Of a stretch of 64,000 bases of DNA, positions 5,948-10,033 are shown one piece after another (position 1 is the stretch's first letter; each line of letters begins with the position of its first letter). The notes beneath the pieces were generated by a model that made no database searches, was not told the DNA's origin, and saw only the letters and a list, made by a program, of their open reading frames with translations. Source of the stretch: Acidimicrobiia bacterium (GTDB lineage Bacteria; Actinomycetota; Acidimicrobiia; Spongiisociales; UBA11373); the NCBI GenBank assembly GCA_040902765.1, contig JBBDWO010000028.1:43946-107945 (forward strand). Direction: 5' to 3'. The position numbers were made by a program, and so were the translations under genes.

Positions 5948-6020
5948 GGGGCTGTAGCTCAGTTGGCAGAGCGCTTGCATGGCATGCAAGAGGTCAGGGG
6001 TTCAAATCCCCTCAGCTCCA
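5948..6020 (+). tRNA. tRNA-Ala (anticodon GGC)
   Basis: Cloverleaf read by eye: acceptor GGGGCTG/CAGCTCC, anticodon loop ATGGCAT, T-loop GGTTCAAATCC; no encoded CCA. Confidence 0.9.
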
Positions 6021-6026
6021 CTTACA

Positions 6027-6051
6027 AGAACCCTTGCGCTGCAAGGGTTCT
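6027..6051 (+). terminator. Perfect hairpin AGAACCCTTGC-GCT-GCAAGGGTTCT just after tRNA-Ala
   Basis: 11-bp stem with 3-nt loop, read from the sequence. Confidence 0.5.
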
Positions 6052-6180
6052 CGGTCTTGTGAGTGCGCCGCCGAGCGCCGGGCTGTCCGTCTACTGTCCG
6101 TCTGAGGTGGCGGACGCTCTCTGAACAGCTCGGGTGGGACGGTTTCCATCCGCTTCGACAATGTGAGGAGGGAAGGGGAC

Positions 6181-6447
6181 GTGAGGCAGCTTGGAACCGC
6201 ATGTCGCGTCTTGGCGATCTCGCTCGTCCTCGGAGGCTGCGGGCAGCCGATCGACGGCCTGGATACGGGCACGACGGCTACCGACGTGCCGTCGTCCGAG
6301 GCGACCATCGAAACCCTAGCAAGCGTGTTCGCGAGCTGTTCGGAGCCGCCCGATCCTGCCGCCGACGCGTACAGCTTCATCGCCGCGACCCAGGGTTGGC
6401 TTAGGGTTGATGCGGTGCTTAAATGCCAATCGGAGACCCGAAGGTGA
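6181..6447 (+). CDS. Hypothetical lipoprotein (islet)
   Basis: GTG start after GAGGAGGGAAGGGGA; lipobox LVLGGC; no recognisable domain. Confidence 0.45.
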   Translation: MRQLGTACRVLAISLVLGGCGQPIDGLDTGTTATDVPSSEATIETLASVFASCSEPPDPAADAYSFIAATQGWLRVDAVLKCQSETRR

Positions 6448-6652
6448 TGCCCCGACGCCCACTGCGATATTCAGGCTTGCCGAAGCCAAAGGCACGGGAG
6501 AGGCTCTCGAGGGTGCCGAGCAGGGAGTTGTCGACGCCGTCGTGCACAGCTCGTATTGGAAAGGCATTGATTGGGCCCTCTCCGAAGGCGCTGACGTGAG
6601 GGCCGTGACGGGAGGAAGGCGTCATGCCGCTGCACGTGGAGGAGGTCATGTG

Positions 6653-8011
6653 ATGTCGATACCCTGGCGTTCGCTCTCATCCAGCCGGATGCCCCTCGCC
6701 GCAGCCGCTCTGACCCTGCTCTCGCTCGCGCTAGTGAGTACGCACGATGCGCAGGCTTCTGATACTGCCGCTATTGACTACTACATCGAGAGTCAACCTC
6801 GGGTTGAGGTAGGCGCCGAGCCGCTGTGCGGCGTGTCCGACGACTCCCACCTGCTAGCCGGTGCTACGGAGACCGAGGCTGGCCACTTCTCGCACGAGGA
6901 TTGGATAGCTAACGAACGGGCTCAGGAAGACGTGAATCGGGTTCACGGCATATTGGCGAATCTCCCGCGAAGCAAGAGCCTGGACGGCAACACCACACCC
7001 GAAGAAGAAACCCTTGCATCGCGGCTGTCACAGGGGGTGGTTGGGGTTACCCACGACAACGTGACGCAGCAGTTCATCATTGTGGTCGATGCGACCGTGA
7101 TTGACATGGAGGGCCTGAAGACCGACTTGGCGGTCCTCGAAAGTGAGCTCGATATCGACATTCAGATCCGACCGGGCTGCCACAGTATCGACGACCTTGC
7201 CCGCGCCGAAACCGTGCTGCGCGGCCGTGCGTGGCACGCCGACGCCAGCAAAGCTACGTACGGGTTTTATGTGGATCCCGCGACAGCTACGTTCAACGTC
7301 ACCCTCTCCCCTGAGAACCGGGCACTAGGCGATGCGCTCGGCGAAACGCTTGGAGAGTTGGTTACTATCGAGTACGGCGAGCCGTCGCGTCGCGGACGCC
7401 TCAACGACGGCGAACCTCACTACGGTGGTGCCGGAATCGGGACGTTGAACAACAACTTCTGCACATCAGGCTTCACCATCGTGAAGAGCGGCGCTCGGGG
7501 CTCGGTGACTGCAGGGCACTGCTACAGCAACGGCACGAGCGTTTACTCGGGTCCGCAGTACTACGGATACAGCACCGGCAAGGCGAGCTTCCCTACGTAC
7601 GACATGATCCGAATCGCCTCGAGCGTGGAAACGTATGCCAACAAGATCCACGTCGATCCCTGTTGCCCGTCCGTTCGTACAGTTGTGAGCGACGCTGATA
7701 CGCAAGTTGACAACTACGTATGCGTCAGCGGCATGGTTACCCGTGCCGTGTGCGGACTCAGGGTTGTCTCGATGAGCGGCGAGCTGTGCGACGCACTCGG
7801 ATGCACACCGAACCTGGGAATTGCTGAGGACCCAGCAGGACGCACGGTAGGTCAGGGCGGCGACTCCGGGGCGCCCATCTACACCAGATGGTCCAACAAC
7901 CGAGCGCAGATTCACGGCATGGAGATCGGTGGAACCGCACCAACAAACGTCTACTTCCACAAAATCTCCCGGATGGAGAGCATCTTGGGGATGAGCGTGG
8001 CACACTCCTAG
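6653..8011 (+). CDS. Secreted S1-family serine protease with alpha-lytic/streptogrisin-like prodomain
   Basis: GGAGG RBS; signal peptide MSIPWRSLSSSRMPLAAAALTLLSLALVST; catalytic His in TAGHCY and Ser in GDSGAP; about 190-aa pro-region; codon usage visibly lower GC than the flanks. Confidence 0.8.
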   Translation: MSIPWRSLSSSRMPLAAAALTLLSLALVSTHDAQASDTAAIDYYIESQPRVEVGAEPLCGVSDDSHLLAGATETEAGHFSHEDWIANERAQEDVNRVHGILANLPRSKSLDGNTTPEEETLASRLSQGVVGVTHDNVTQQFIIVVDATVIDMEGLKTDLAVLESELDIDIQIRPGCHSIDDLARAETVLRGRAWHADASKATYGFYVDPATATFNVTLSPENRALGDALGETLGELVTIEYGEPSRRGRLNDGEPHYGGAGIGTLNNNFCTSGFTIVKSGARGSVTAGHCYSNGTSVYSGPQYYGYSTGKASFPTYDMIRIASSVETYANKIHVDPCCPSVRTVVSDADTQVDNYVCVSGMVTRAVCGLRVVSMSGELCDALGCTPNLGIAEDPAGRTVGQGGDSGAPIYTRWSNNRAQIHGMEIGGTAPTNVYFHKISRMESILGMSVAHS

Positions 8012-8292
8012 TGGTCCGTCGTACGTCGCGGAATCGGGGACCGAGGTTAGGAGGCTCGGCGGCGGCGGACCATGGCGATGATCTCTTCGGCGGTCTTGTG
8101 CCAGACCAACGGTCTGGGTTGTCGTTTCAGCGTTCGCCCCACAGTTCGATGGCGCCGATCGGCCTGTGCACGGAGCGGAACGAGTCGCGGCGGGGACGTC
8201 GAGTGGTGCGCTCACCGGAACCACCACGCCCGAACTGGTCGCGCAGCGGGTACTTCATTGATGCACTAAGATCACCTCGCGCCGCCACAGGA

Positions 8293-8706
8293 GTGTTTGT
8301 GCGCGTCTTGGTCGCCATGGTGCTGGCTACGATCCTGCTGACAGCCTGTGGTACCAACGAGACTGAACCTGACCGTGTGACGGCCATCGACGGAGCCGTC
8401 GACAACAGTGACGAGAGCACAGGAACCGTAGCCGAACGGACCAAGCCCGACCCGCCTCCGCCCTCACACCAGTGTACCGAGGCTGCGCTTGAGGACCTTC
8501 TTCGCCGAGTCACCGATAGAGGATGGACCTCCCGTCCCAACGAGGTGGCATTCGGAGCTTTTGTCGAGTTGTCCTTGTGCCGAGTTGTCGTGCAAAGCGA
8601 CTCCTTCACGCCAGATGAGACGCAAGCCCTCGCTGATCTCGACCCCGATGGCCGTGTTCTCGTTGAGCATACAGACGGCCCGGTCGGCAGGCGGGTGGGC
8701 GGGTAG
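8293..8706 (+). CDS. Hypothetical lipoprotein (islet)
   Basis: GTG start after AGGAG; lipobox ILLTAC; Pro-rich linker; no known domain. Confidence 0.5.
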   Translation: MFVRVLVAMVLATILLTACGTNETEPDRVTAIDGAVDNSDESTGTVAERTKPDPPPPSHQCTEAALEDLLRRVTDRGWTSRPNEVAFGAFVELSLCRVVVQSDSFTPDETQALADLDPDGRVLVEHTDGPVGRRVGG

Positions 8707-9016
8707 ACCAGTCACCTCACCGTCCGACTCAGCCACATCAAGCACCCGGAACCCCTCTAAACCCACGAGCGCCTTGAACCTCGGCCGAGCCGATACCGTT
8801 GACTGCCATCAGGGGCCTCCCTCCTCCGTCCCCTAGCCGGGGGGCAACCTCGCTCAGCGTCCTGCCGAAGTCTTCGGGTCCTGCCGATCGCCACCGAGGT
8901 GACTCGCTCAGCACCTTGGACGGCGACGGCGGGACGCTCAAGCTCTAGGTTGAGTCCCTCCCTGTAGCTGAGGAGGATGCTGTGGCTGCGAGCGATGGCC
9001 GAAGAGGCGCTGAGCT

Positions 9017-9568
9017 TCACGCCGCCAATAGGTCTGGTCCGGATTTGGTCCGCGAGAGATCAGAAAACACCCCCAGAGGACGCAAGTGGTTCATAGCGAA
9101 AACCCCAGTGATCATGGGGGAATGTCGCAAGACCACCCAGTTCTCAGGATCGCCGCAGCTGATTTGTAATGTTCGTTCAGCCTCCGGTGCCCTTGTGACG
9201 ACAAATCCGCTTGCGCCGAGAGGAGAGGCGGGAGCGGGTCGGCTCTCGGTACCATGTCGATTGAAGCGTCGAGAGCTGTGGCTTTCGAGGAACGTCACTA
9301 CGAGCGTGTGGAAGACGCTGGGCCGTAGCTCTCGGGCATGGATCACGGCGATGCCGGGGTGGGTTCCCGGCGAGTAGCGCCCGACGTCTGCGAGGCCTCG
9401 ATCGAGGGTCACGAGCATCCGGTCGTCGGAAGCGGCTAAGAGGGCCAGTCGGGCGTCGGGGACACCGACCAGGCTCTCCTCAGGCACCGTGCTCACATCG
9501 TGTCCGCGCTCCCGGAGCAGCTCGACAGCCCGGGTCGGGATGTTCTCGTCGGCTTTGAGCTTCACCAA
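9017..9568 (-). CDS. DUF5615 (PIN-like, Mut7-C) protein with anomalous C-terminal extension
   Basis: N-terminus (TTG start) VKLKADENIPTRAVELLRERGHDV matches the DUF5615 family from memory; the ORF runs about 75 aa past the usual domain end. Confidence 0.55.
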   Translation of the reverse strand: MVKLKADENIPTRAVELLRERGHDVSTVPEESLVGVPDARLALLAASDDRMLVTLDRGLADVGRYSPGTHPGIAVIHARELRPSVFHTLVVTFLESHSSRRFNRHGTESRPAPASPLGASGFVVTRAPEAERTLQISCGDPENWVVLRHSPMITGVFAMNHLRPLGVFSDLSRTKSGPDLLAA

Positions 9569-9599
9569 AGGGGGAGCGGGAGCACGTCCTCACTGGCGA

Positions 9600-9795
9600 G
9601 TGCTGCAAGGTGGCCGCCGCCCGGATGCCCTCGACCGTCAACGTCGGATACTCGTCGAGGATCTCTGCCTCGGTTATCCCCCTCAGCCAGGCACCCGAGC
9701 ACGAGGCTCACAGGGATTCGCGTACCCCGGATGGGCGCTTGGCCGTGCAGTACCTCCGGGTCGACGGCGATGAGCTCCAGCTCCTGATCGGTCAC
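9600..9795 (-). pseudogene. DUF433 (antitoxin-like partner of DUF5615), disrupted by +1 frameshift in a G5 run
   Basis: Frame A gives IAVDPEVLHGQAPIRGTRIPVSLVLGCLAEG; a different frame gives ITEAEILDEYPTLTVEGIRAAAT (canonical DUF433 C-terminus); the frames switch at the minus-strand GGGGG run at 9678-9682. Confidence 0.5.
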
Positions 9796-9985
9796 TTGGA
9801 GGAGCGCAAAGGCTTGCCCGCTCGATTCGGCTCCTCGGGACGGTCCCGCAAGGGCGGAGGTGTCCGCGAGGTGTCCGCGAGACAACCGAAAACGAGGGAA
9901 TCTGACCACAAGCTCCGAACACTGAAATCCCTTACAGCACAAGGGATTTCTCGAAATCCTCCAGGTCGGCGAAACCCCCTGATTG

Positions 9986-10033
9986 TGCATGGCATGCAAG
10001 AGGTCAGGGGTTCAAATCCCCTCAGCTCCACTT
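9986..10033 (+). repeat. 48-bp direct repeat of the tRNA-Ala 3' end (attR-like); partner at 5986-6023
   Basis: TGCATGGCATGCAAGAGGTCAGGGGTTCAAATCCCCTCAGCTCCACTT is identical at both sites. Confidence 0.8.

Follow-up and report, generated by a model that had tools for sequence, protein, structure and literature searches.

The attP of phage lambda and of mycobacteriophages of the L5 type places a core between arm-type integrase-binding sites, and AICEs such as pSAM2 and SLP1 combine a tyrosine integrase with integration at the 3′ end of a tRNA gene in high-GC Gram-positive hosts. CIMEs (cis-mobilizable elements) of the Streptococcus ICE/IME systems keep attL and attR and have lost their integration genes (PMC5704250), and the Islander catalogue of tDNA-integrated genomic islands requires an integrase gene inside the island (PMC4383910). 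The 4-kb islet described here, located in a 64-kb stretch of bacterial DNA (the window), resembles each of these systems in part. Like a CIME, it keeps attL and attR in the 3′ end of a tRNA gene without integration genes, and its relatives L186 and L188 show accretion, with an intact and a decayed element in tandem. However, its host, an uncultured bacterium, belongs to the Actinomycetota (class Acidimicrobiia), and its parent elements are tiny (4.8–7 kb) and carry no recognisable conjugation or mobilisation genes, so that an ICE or IME is at most a possible ancestor of the islet. The intact tRNA, a displaced 3′ fragment lying in the same direction, an identity block that begins in the anticodon stem and the tyrosine-integrase family at the site correspond to the anticodon-centred class of Islander, but the islet has no integrase, and the Islander definition would miss it or filter it out. 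As in lambda and L5, the attP reconstructed from its sequence bears a direct-repeat pair with an 11-bp period on each arm, and the family integrase has an N-terminal domain of the arm-binding type (PF26003), whereas the family elements lack virion genes and the islet’s arm words are unlike each other. With AICEs and relaxase-bearing integrative mobilisable elements the islet family shares tRNA 3′-end integration, a tyrosine integrase and a high-GC Gram-positive host, but the islet and its closest intact relatives are devoid of replication, FtsK-like transfer and relaxase genes.

The insertion site is an intact tRNA-Ala(GGC) gene (5948–6021, plus strand, ARAGORN), preceded by a promoter-like match at 5911–5938 and 100% identical to the tRNA of L002, L007 and L186. 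A 48-nt sequence, TGCATGGCATGCAAGAGGTCAGGGGTTCAAATCCCCTCAGCTCCACTT, which runs from the anticodon stem to 2–3 nt beyond the tRNA 3′ end, occurs exactly twice in the 64-kb window, both times on the plus strand in direct orientation: at 5976–6023, where the 3′ part of the tRNA from 5976 on forms the attL core, and at 9986–10033, the attR copy. It had no match in 100 dinucleotide-preserving shuffles, even with 3 mismatches allowed. The first-pass annotation had recognised this attL/attR-like repeat of the tRNA 3′ end and its exact recurrence at 9986–10033, although the start it gave for the first copy, 5986, was a typo for 5976. Within the anticodon stem, the repeat begins at position 29 of the tRNA, and the identity block of the complete relatives L186, L188 and L191 begins at the same tRNA position (27–29). 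ARAGORN finds no second tRNA-Ala in the window and no tRNA at 9986–10033, so the repeat is not a second complete tRNA gene, the outcome named beforehand as one that would contradict integration; because what precedes this copy (..GGCGAAACCCCCTGATTG) bears no relation to the 5′ half of the tRNA, the copy represents a displaced tRNA 3′ fragment and not a gene.

We then compared the locus with L001 (DATKBG010000262.1), which is 90.6% identical to the window over 3.8 kb and aligns unbroken to the window up to 6023 joined to 10034–10087, with 53/54 nt identical past the tRNA. Since its tRNA runs straight into 10034–10087, L001 represents the empty site that had been predicted, with tRNA-Ala followed directly by position 10034 onward, and none of the relatives has this content after its tRNA-Ala while lacking the repeat. 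The segment 10034–10087 (plus strand) is the native downstream sequence of the tRNA, outside the element and at the ancestral junction, and contains the original tRNA terminator hairpin at 10048–10080 (−25.4 kcal/mol, z = −5.4). By this alignment the islet is an insertion relative to L001, the one empty-site genome (n=1, ~90% identical), whose contig ends 183 nt past the conserved junction. The composition of the islet is foreign: GC is 0.626 over 6024–9985 versus 0.681 in the left flank and 0.676 in the right flank, and GC3 is 0.72 for the S1 protease and 0.76 and 0.67 for the lipoproteins at 6163–6447 and 8293–8706, compared to a host mean of 0.85 (sd 0.038, minimum 0.76, 26 genes). The lower-GC codon usage reported at first reading is thus borne out, with the DUF5615 and DUF433 segment closer to the host at ~0.80.

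The ORFs and Pfam domains of the enclosed DNA agree with the gene content first listed, a secreted S1 protease, two lipoproteins and a DUF433/DUF5615 pair. The ORF list gives a small putative lipoprotein at 6163–6447 (plus strand, 94 aa from the first GTG, lipobox-like ..LVLGGC), which a Logan contig annotates as an 88-aa gene with its start 18 nt further in, and a second putative lipoprotein at 8293–8706 (plus strand, 137 aa, lipobox ..LLTACG); neither has a Pfam family. Between them, 6653–8011 (plus strand) encodes a secreted S1 serine protease precursor of the alpha-lytic/streptogrisin type (452 aa with a signal peptide, motifs TAGHC and GGDSGAP), identical to NCBI WEA29_07785. It matches the PDB sequences of the Thermobifida alkaline serine protease 2pfe and alpha-lytic protease (E = 0.0025–0.009) and, weakly, the alpha-lytic prodomain in Pfam, and its nearest homologues (59–62% identity) lie elsewhere, among IS elements. 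A two-frame stretch spotted by eye at 8050–8168 on the minus strand (..PIGAIELWGER / LKRQPRPLVWHKTAEEIIAMV..) might, with low confidence, be a relic of the C-terminus of an IS630-family transposase; it has no Pfam match, and the genes it matches repeatedly, though weakly, in tblastn (E = 0.2–0.7) are annotated as IS630-family transposases on Rhodococcus plasmids. The 310 bp at 8707–9016 are non-coding or degenerate, without detectable homology, giving no Pfam match in any frame and no core or arm relic.

The description of the DUF433/DUF5615 pair as decayed applies to DUF433 (9603–9780, minus strand), a pseudogene in which a single domain is spread over two reading frames (profile positions 1–33 in one, 30–53 in the other); the six-frame Pfam scan also gives DUF433 matches in two frames. 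It does not extend to the domain of the DUF5615/PIN-like ORF (9017–9568, minus strand; Pfam PF18480 E = 5.7e-16, PIN_10 E = 7e-4), which is intact at residues 3–100 within an ORF that continues for ~80 codons beyond it. The two form a toxin-antitoxin-like pair, partly decayed. The signs of decay in the islet are the DUF433 frameshift, the possible IS630 relic and the 310-bp stretch. The six-frame scan, which took in 67 stop-free stretches of at least 40 aa each, found no recombinase or transposase domain, its only credible matches being DUF433 and DUF5615/PIN_10, and tblastn with a full-length family integrase returned nothing in the island. The enclosed 4 kb indeed holds no recombinase, as first noted, and no integrase is present in the whole 64-kb window. 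The islet is unable to move by itself.

Scanning with a 46-nt core recovered 109 metagenome contigs, and complete elements at the rsfS-tRNA-Ala locus measure 4.84 kb (L186), 5.67 kb (L188) and 7.05 kb (L191-193); small related islands in other Acidimicrobiia span 4.8–7 kb. The complete elements are bounded by the tRNA and a 46–48-nt fragment starting at the same tRNA position, and each carries a 362–381-aa tyrosine integrase (PF26003 + PF00589) on the minus strand adjoining attL, with the end of the integrase gene coinciding with the left-arm repeats in intact relatives. Phages of Gordonia, Mycobacterium and Rhodococcus have tyrosine integrases with 30–33% identity to this one, and more distant members of its clade occur in elements that also encode a TrwC relaxase and an HTH_17 excisionase-like protein. 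Complete elements conserve int and the arms and nothing else, indicating high cargo turnover, and intact cognate integrases are abundant in Acidimicrobiia metagenomes. At other copies of the locus int is 5′-truncated (L077, L146, L172, L096 and L183) or frameshifted (L184 and L185), and in the tandem arrays of L186 and L188 an old arm and an int remnant come after an intact element. Another int-less islet, independent and 2.3 kb long, lies on contig L081; its right arm matches, and its cargo is a different one, an ECF sigma factor.

By alignment, each end of our islet is homologous to the corresponding arm, left or right, of the complete integrase-carrying islands at the same locus, each arm having a hairpin and a tandem GTCCG pair (11-bp period) at conserved distances from the core. 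The left-arm hairpin, AGAACCCTTGC-GCT-GCAAGGGTTCT (6027–6051, plus strand; −17.7 kcal/mol, z = −3.8), has homologues at the same place in L172, L087, L077, L115, L096, L186, L188 and L191, and probably substitutes for the tRNA’s own terminator. The left-arm repeats CTGTCCGTCTA / CTGTCCGTCTG (6083–6104, plus strand, period 11), putative arm-type integrase-binding sites, correspond in position to tandem GTCCG repeats of L077, L096, L115, L146 and L172 (+86 to +99, counted from the T-loop), and homology to relatives stops at ~6107, the position of the relatives’ int 3′ end. The right arm can be aligned with those of the complete elements over its full length, including two exact copies of GGTGTCCGCGA (9859–9880, plus strand, period 11), likewise putative arm-type sites, which align with AGTCCGCGgAgAGTCCGCGAGA in the right arms of the int-bearing L186, L188 and L191 and with L081; a hairpin, GAAATCCCTT-ACAGCAC-AAGGGATTTC (9924–9950, plus strand; −12.8 kcal/mol, z = −4.9), whose position is conserved in L081 and L191; and CCnGGTC and CCCnGAT blocks ahead of the core. 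From positional conservation alone we infer that the GTCCG repeats are arm-type sites. Other lineages have other repeat words at the same position (CGTGCCA, GTCTGGGGCAT, TTGCCAGAGA), a variation expected where arm-type sites co-vary with the integrase. The reconstructed attP spans ~285 bp (right arm ~150 bp, core 48 bp, left arm ~85 bp). With 11/11 and 10/11 identity within the pairs, both arms and the 48-nt repeat look undecayed, which could mean that the insertion is young or that the sites are still in use.

The unit of 4,010 bp, made up of 6024–9985 and one copy of the repeat, is probably a non-autonomous, CIME-like member, now without its integrase, of a family of small tRNA-Ala integrative islands, and is best read as an ordinary stranded mobile-element remnant. 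The best explanation for the family is insertion by a lambda/L5-type tyrosine integrase into the segment from anticodon loop to 3′ end of tRNA-Ala(GGC) in Acidimicrobiia. An attP made up of right arm, left arm and, between them, a 48-bp core with the sequence of the tRNA 3′ part would have recombined with the tRNA gene, rebuilding the tRNA from element DNA, giving it a new terminator hairpin and pushing the original 3′ fragment to the far end of the element. The integrase gene, normally on the minus strand and ending at or just past the left-arm repeats, would have been lost through deletion or replacement, and IS traffic and gene decay would have reshaped the cargo, leaving the secreted S1 protease, two lipoproteins and the toxin-antitoxin-like pair with its broken DUF433. 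Of the two readings offered initially, a decayed integrative element is favoured over a satellite mobilised in trans because the arms come from an integrase-bearing family and integrases decay frequently at this site. Trans mobilisation is possible given intact-looking arms and the abundance of cognate integrases in the class; as both arms keep paired 11-bp-period GTCCG repeats, the cognate integrase of a sibling element might in principle excise or co-mobilise the islet. One counterpoint to decay is that the islet holds no int trace while most decayed relatives retain a C-terminal remnant, so int must either have been deleted up to within a few tens of bases of the arm repeats or have been missing on arrival.

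The decay reading also has a variant, which does not compete with it. Two different elements would have stood in tandem at the tRNA, and deletions would have taken out their integrases along with the att copy in the middle and the inner arms. The protease segment and its left arm, of the GTCCGTCT type, would then come from one element, and the toxin-antitoxin-like segment and its right arm, of the GTCCGCGA type, from the other. The islet may not derive from a single element, given that its left-arm word GTCCGTCT differs from its right-arm word GTCCGCGA whereas intact elements have one word on both arms (AGTCCGCGgAgAGTCCGCGAGA in L186, L188 and L191). The left word agrees with L096 and L081 and the right word with L186, L188, L191 and L077, GC3 is unequal between the segments (0.67–0.76 versus ~0.80), tandem arrays occur in relatives, and accretion has been described for CIMEs (PMC5704250). 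A third, internal tandem GTCCG pair (GGTCCGGATTTGGTCCGCGAGAGATC; 9036–9061, plus strand), just past two terminator-like hairpins of the DUF5615 operon, matches GTCCGCGAGAGATC from the left arms of L077, L146 and L191 at 14/14 positions and is possibly a relic of another element’s left arm and int tail, but the match is marginal (score 28 versus a shuffle maximum of 27–31). However, neither a core nor a right-arm relic can be detected inside the islet, the intact elements found include none that has GTCCGTCT on its two arms, and a single arm of L172 bears GTCCGTC as well as GTCCGCG, so that the two words may be acceptable to the same integrase. We consider a two-element origin rather unlikely.

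We think it unlikely that the islet is still active as an integrase-less satellite or cassette, which would have come without int, been integrated by a sibling’s integrase in trans and remained excisable within a family that swaps small cargo modules at a tRNA-Ala hot spot. The intact-looking repeats and hairpins of both arms, the exact 48-nt repeats, the supply of cognate integrases, the high cargo turnover and the second int-less islet, L081, with its related arm and different cargo, are consistent with such a satellite. However, the islet was found just once, it holds pseudogenes and a degenerate non-coding stretch, the truncated integrases at the same site point to frequent in-situ decay, and the window offers no integrase.

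An assembly artefact, in which an islet from another organism or strain was joined via the shared 48-nt tRNA segment, is highly improbable. The source is a metagenome-assembled genome (reads SRR27977660), islet and flanks differ in composition, contig breaks are common at this tRNA-Ala, and a Logan contig of the same run begins within the 48-nt repeat. However, a chimera needs two switches at the repeat, and the second copy is a genuine displaced fragment with a conserved element arm before it and host sequence shared with L001 after it. Typical final assembly k-mers exceed 48 nt, and the att-flanked islet would be real even were its host mis-assigned. The chance that no mobile element is involved, and that the repeat arose by local duplication or is what remains of another tRNA-Ala gene, is negligible. 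Nothing beyond the repeat itself speaks for it, ARAGORN sees no tRNA there, the sequence upstream is unrelated to the 5′ half of the tRNA, and site-specific integration is indicated by the foreign composition, the arm homology and the empty site. Separately, a similar scar is present at tRNA-Asn in the same window.

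The islet at tRNA-Ala(GGC), a 4,010-bp unit comprising one 48-nt repeat copy and positions 6024-9985, probably arose when an integrase inserted a member of a family of small islands, and it is now non-autonomous. Insertion, arm homology, absence of a recombinase and frequent decay of relatives are all observed, and the integrase gene (int) would have been lost after insertion. ARAGORN finds a single tRNA-Ala(GGC) in the window (5948-6021), and a repeat finder with a pattern search of the window recovered the 48-nt string TGCATGGCATGCAAGAGGTCAGGGGTTCAAATCCCCTCAGCTCCACTT exactly twice on the same strand, at 5976-6023 (attL) and 9986-10033 (attR), with no match in 100 shuffles even when 3 mismatches were permitted. 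The first-pass annotation was right about the exact duplicate at 9986-10033 and wrong about the start of the first copy, which it gave as 5986, a typographical error for 5976; further copies were sought, and the window holds just the two. The repeat spans the tRNA from position 29 (anticodon stem) to its 3' end and 2-3 nt more. Bases 5' of the second copy bear no resemblance to the tRNA 5' half, so this copy is a displaced fragment rather than a second complete tRNA gene, and the islet is bounded, in Islander terms, by an intact tRNA and a displaced fragment in direct orientation (exact over 48 nt). The identity block begins at tRNA position 27-29 in the window, in a second integrase-less islet (L081) and in complete elements (L186, L188 and L191), consistent with the anticodon-centred class (PMC4383910) as far as sequence can tell, the crossover point itself being unreadable from identical repeats.

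GC content is 0.626 in the enclosed DNA and 0.68 in the flanks. GC3 values are 0.72 (protease gene), 0.67 and 0.76 (the two lipoprotein genes), compared to a host mean of 0.85 (sd 0.038, minimum 0.76, n=26 genes), bearing out the lower-GC codon usage that had been noted between the repeats; the DUF5615 and DUF433 part, at about 0.80, lies nearer the host.

We located relatives by scanning one genome per species with the upstream NadD protein, a scan that gave the source of the window as an Acidimicrobiia bacterium and found the gene order nadD-rsfS-tRNA-Ala(GGC) kept across class Acidimicrobiia. The nearest relative (contig DATKBG010000262.1, NadD 89% identical) aligns without a break to the window minus 6024-10033 at 90.6% nucleotide identity, passing through the tRNA and 54 bases more (53/54 identical), which correspond to window 10034-10087. 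The empty site that had been predicted therefore exists, with the tRNA running directly into the equivalent of 10034-10087, and the islet is absent from a related genome, as Islander asks of an island. Window 10034-10087 folds as a strong hairpin (-25.4 kcal/mol, z = -5.4), presumably the original terminator of tRNA-Ala. Past these 54 nt the two sequences diverge (window 10088 onward, 3837-4019 of the relative), and the window's downstream genes (a BNR/sortilin protein and others) follow tRNA-Ala in none of the fetched relatives, so synteny ends about 54 nt past the tRNA. These data place the tRNA at the border of variable DNA, with the region beyond the islet variable too. Among the genes missing after tRNA-Ala in relatives is that of an 896-aa BNR/sortilin-repeat protein at 10155-12845 (minus strand), beyond the islet. 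In many assemblies a contig breaks off at tRNA-Ala or no more than a few tens of bases away (L005, L009, L014, L015, L017 and many of L073-L181), which is consistent with strain-variable insertions breaking assemblies there.

We then examined the islet's cargo. A six-frame Pfam scan of every stop-free stretch of at least 40 aa (n=67) gave credible matches to DUF433, DUF5615 and PIN_10 only, with no recombinase domain among the 67 stretches, confirming the absence of an integrase; tblastn with the full-length (repaired) family integrase against 6024-9985 likewise returned no match, and the earlier reading of the islet as lacking a recombinase stands on both searches. The reported gene content (a secreted protease, two lipoproteins and a DUF433/DUF5615 pair) was also found: a 94-aa protein with a lipobox-like N-terminus (6163-6447), a 452-aa secreted protease (6653-8011) with TAGHC and GGDSGAP motifs, identical to NCBI WEA29_07785, a 137-aa lipoprotein (8293-8706), a DUF5615/PIN-like ORF (9017-9568, minus strand) and DUF433, split into two halves in separate frames within the islet. 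In the PDB, the protease matches alpha-lytic protease and a Thermobifida alkaline serine protease at E = 0.0025-0.009. At 8050-8168 (minus strand) lies what may be a relic of an IS630-type transposase C-terminus, unsupported in Pfam and with weak tblastn matches that fall on annotated IS630 transposase genes; about 310 bp of the islet are homologous to nothing. The practical gain for the host is a secreted S1 protease and two lipoproteins.

The nearest protease homologues, on contigs L070 and L071 of two other assemblies, are 59-62% identical and sit amid IS3- and IS5-type transposases. These contexts were ruled out as relatives of the islet, the protease being the sole shared gene; together with the surrounding transposases, this marks the protease as itself mobile cargo. 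Beside the homologue in each (L070 11389-12336, L071 11405-12427) lies a paralogue of only the N-terminal (pro-region) half of the protease. Just one further record contains the protease, a 2.6-kb Logan contig of SRR27977660 (L072, equal to window 5994-8634). It opens with the last 30 nt of the 48-nt repeat, in line with a k=31 graph; its other end, at 8634 within the second lipoprotein gene, has no evident cause and could reflect a variant or a break in coverage.

Comparison of the arms, the islet ends adjoining attL and attR, ties the islet to an integrase-bearing family. Scanning metagenome contigs with the 46-nt tRNA segment gave 109 contigs, most with a complete tRNA; the fragment without a preceding 5' half occurs in six cases (L075/L120, L130/L138, L076 and a second copy in L081). 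Alignment upstream of the fragments reveals, 105-130 nt from the core (the tRNA-derived repeat), two short direct repeats in tandem, and the right-side word varies by lineage: GTGTCCGCGA in the window, GTGTCCGTC in L081, GTCTGGGGCAT in L076 and CGTGCCA in L075, L120, L130 and L138. On the left, the window carries a hairpin downstream of the complete tRNA (6027-6051, -17.7 kcal/mol, z = -3.8), inferred to replace the tRNA terminator, followed by the repeats CTGTCCGTCTA/CTGTCCGTCTG at 6083-6104; a hairpin and tandem GTCCG repeats lie at equal offset in L077, L096, L115, L146 and L172. Tandem GTCCG shows no enrichment across the whole window (9 occurrences versus 6.6 ± 2.7 expected), and its weight derives from conserved position across independent loci rather than from its count. 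Tandem repeats with an 11-12-bp period occur at conserved offsets in both arms of at least eight elements. Repeated words at fixed positions in both arms, varying with integrase lineage, are what defines a lambda/L5-type att site, and by position the islet and its relatives share this arrangement; the repeats are putative arm-type integrase-binding sites, as judged from sequence, and the conserved pairs offer a testable prediction of arm-binding specificity for an uncharacterised integrase family. The window's right arm aligns along its length with those of L186-, L188- and L191-type complete elements, sharing the repeats at 9859-9880, a hairpin at 9924-9950 (z = -4.9) and two short blocks before the core. 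The left arm aligns up to its repeats and homology stops at about 6107, the place where int sits in relatives. The predicted circular attP junction would read ..CGAAACCCCCTGATTG + 48-nt core + ACAAGAACCCTTGCG... Viral contigs scanned for the attL junction and the 46-nt core gave no match, and so no link to known viral contigs.

A tyrosine integrase's catalytic-tyrosine end, ..LGHASIRTTYDVYGHLF.., is encoded on the minus strand beside the left-arm repeats of L077, L146, L172 and L115; of that integrase, 59-91 residues are left in L077, L146 and L172 and about 90 diverged ones in L096. An 80-aa remnant used as query returned 69 homologues, all of at most 136 aa, an artefact of querying with a short fragment. 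We dropped the idea that the integrase at GTCCG arms is universally broken, or a conserved 'mini-integrase' gene, when the repaired full-length query found many intact 362-aa proteins. These carry PF26003 and PF00589, and one is 100% identical to the repaired query, so this is a living family. Tyrosine integrases of Gordonia, Mycobacterium and Rhodococcus phages share 30-33% identity with it. A single frameshift splits the 362-aa integrase in L184 and L185 and leaves its tail as the 80-aa ORF, L183 has an integrase gene cut at residue -121, and a conserved Met downstream of such frameshifts or truncations serves as the start of the 80-aa ORFs. Dozens of database proteins are exactly 80 aa long (P0121-P0189, for example in L182, L184 and L185), some named 'integrase'; these 80-aa 'integrases' are gene-calling products of pseudogenes, not a protein family of their own. 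A distinct integrase subfamily that might match the islet's left-arm word was sought, and the integrases of 53-59% identity examined all sit at other loci. Those in L194 and L196 belong to elements with an HTH_17 excisionase-like gene and WhiB, and L196 adds a TrwC relaxase; given this content, the wider clade includes elements that may be mobilisable or conjugative.

Complete elements of the family occur at the same tRNA. On long contigs an intact integrase gene adjoins rsfS-tRNA-Ala and a 46-48-nt tRNA fragment closes the element, giving 4,843 bp in L186, 5,673 bp in L188 and 7,048 bp in L191-L193, a size class that includes the 4,010-bp islet. Each arm of these elements bears AGTCCGCGgAgAGTCCGCGAGA with an 11-bp period, the left-arm repeats lying within the last codons of int. 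The integrase gene is the sole one common to all, with one neighbouring gene additionally shared by L184 and L188; the remaining genes are all different and have no Pfam or PHROG match, and no transfer or mobilisation gene is recognisable in these intact relatives, int being present. Directly after the closing fragment of the intact 4.8- and 5.7-kb elements lies an older left arm (L186 14804-15100 and L188 10559-11000, both flipped), with an integrase remnant of 43-99 residues; the remnant census ranked references by coverage length and was used solely for remnants downstream of attR copies. L186 and L188 are thus tandem arrays, a decayed element with a newer one inserted next to it. Just beyond the 7-kb element of L191-L193, between its attR and host-like genes (locus coordinates 1565-4003), small unknown genes accompany a gene for an HK97-type major capsid protein (PF05065); this may be a remnant of another, phage-related tandem element.

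L081 (Ga0214472_10135372, positions 1-2422) is an independent 2.3-kb integrase-less islet at tRNA-Ala, whose tRNA and fragment stand 2,324 bp apart with a repeat of about 49 nt. It contains an ECF sigma factor gene and a gene for an unknown 254-aa protein, and its right arm is homologous to the window's. The same 9 nt follow its fragment and the tRNA of L114 and L106, two possible empty sites. In an uncultured class of actinobacteria, one conserved locus thereby displays the full life cycle of a family of very small islands that target a tRNA gene, from intact through frameshifted or truncated copies and tandem arrays to integrase-less islets. We found no description of so unusually small an Acidimicrobiia island family in the literature searched.

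These observations uphold the interpretation of the islet as a tRNA-integrated element, now an integrase-less remnant of an island. We consider it possible, though unlikely, that it is a hybrid produced by accretion and deletion, a variant of decay: the two arms have different words, GTCCGTCT on the left (as in L096 and L081) and GTCCGCGA on the right (as in L186, L188, L191 and L077), the left-arm 14-mer GTCCGCGAGAGATC has a match in an internal pair at 9036-9061, and GC3 is unequal between the protease part and the toxin-antitoxin-like part. However, the 14-mer match is marginal against shuffles, an internal degenerate core or right arm, sought as proof of tandem accretion, gave nothing above shuffles, and L172 has both words in one arm. 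Somewhat less likely still is that the islet arrived without int or is still mobilised in trans, as might be suggested by its lack of any surviving int remnant and by the pristine look of both arms and the 48-nt repeat. It seems doubtful that the islet and L081 are working members of a cassette economy at an Acidimicrobiia tRNA-Ala(GGC) hot spot, in which small cargo modules keeping only their two arms (cis sites of about 235 bp) would be excised, transferred and re-inserted by the integrases of sibling elements; if true, the islet would function less like a classical decaying island and more like an integron-type cassette exchanged at a tRNA gene. An assembly chimera is very improbable, as a genuine element arm lies before the fragment and sequence common to the empty-site relative after it.

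Set against known systems, the probable remnant of an inserted island differs from a tDNA island as Islander defines it, which needs a tyrosine integrase inside; island finders demanding one miss such islets. Like a CIME (a cis-mobilizable element with attL and attR and without integration genes), it retains both attachment sites, with both core copies exact and both arms aligning with those of intact elements, and has lost integration and transfer genes. A CIME derives by decay from an ICE or IME; the islet's intact relatives have int but no recognisable transfer or mobilisation genes, and decay intermediates exist. A CIME can be mobilised in cis after accretion; tandem arrays at the islet's site are seen in L186 and L188. 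Phage satellites (PICI or P4-like) carry integrase, replication/primase and helper-interference/packaging genes, none of which is in the islet, and the cargo of its intact relatives lacks PHROG or Pfam matches. The int/xis, Rep and FtsK-like Tra genes of an AICE were found neither in the islet nor in the intact relatives. With a lambda/L5-type att site the islet and relatives share words at fixed positions in both arms, integrase binding being putative. An IS insertion or composite transposon would have a transposase or inverted repeats at its ends and a short target-site duplication, in contrast to the 48-nt tRNA-derived direct repeat with integrase-type arms seen here; the sole IS trace is the weak internal relic. 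The islet leaves current understanding of site-specific integration unchanged.

Downstream of tRNA-Asn (50278-50352) we observed a second integrative-element scar (50353-50560), with a hairpin (GAAAACCCC..GGGGGTTTT), tandem CAGGACGCG repeats (CCCAGGACGCG/CTCAGGACGCG) and a minus-strand tyrosine-integrase C-terminal remnant (..LGHRNATVTLNTYTHLFEG..; ..QQLGHRNATVTLNTYTHLFEGDLSEVMDRLE..; tblastn E = 0.08), the best match of the repaired integrase in the window; the window holds no second copy of the tRNA-Asn 3' end. After tRNA-Met (60533-60609), whose 3' end is likewise not repeated within the window, 61252-63632 encodes a MacB/FtsX permease, an ABC ATPase and a following ORF, with no integrase found for it. 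GC3 there is 0.72-0.74 versus the host mean of 0.85, as low as that of the islet, and this may be another foreign segment.
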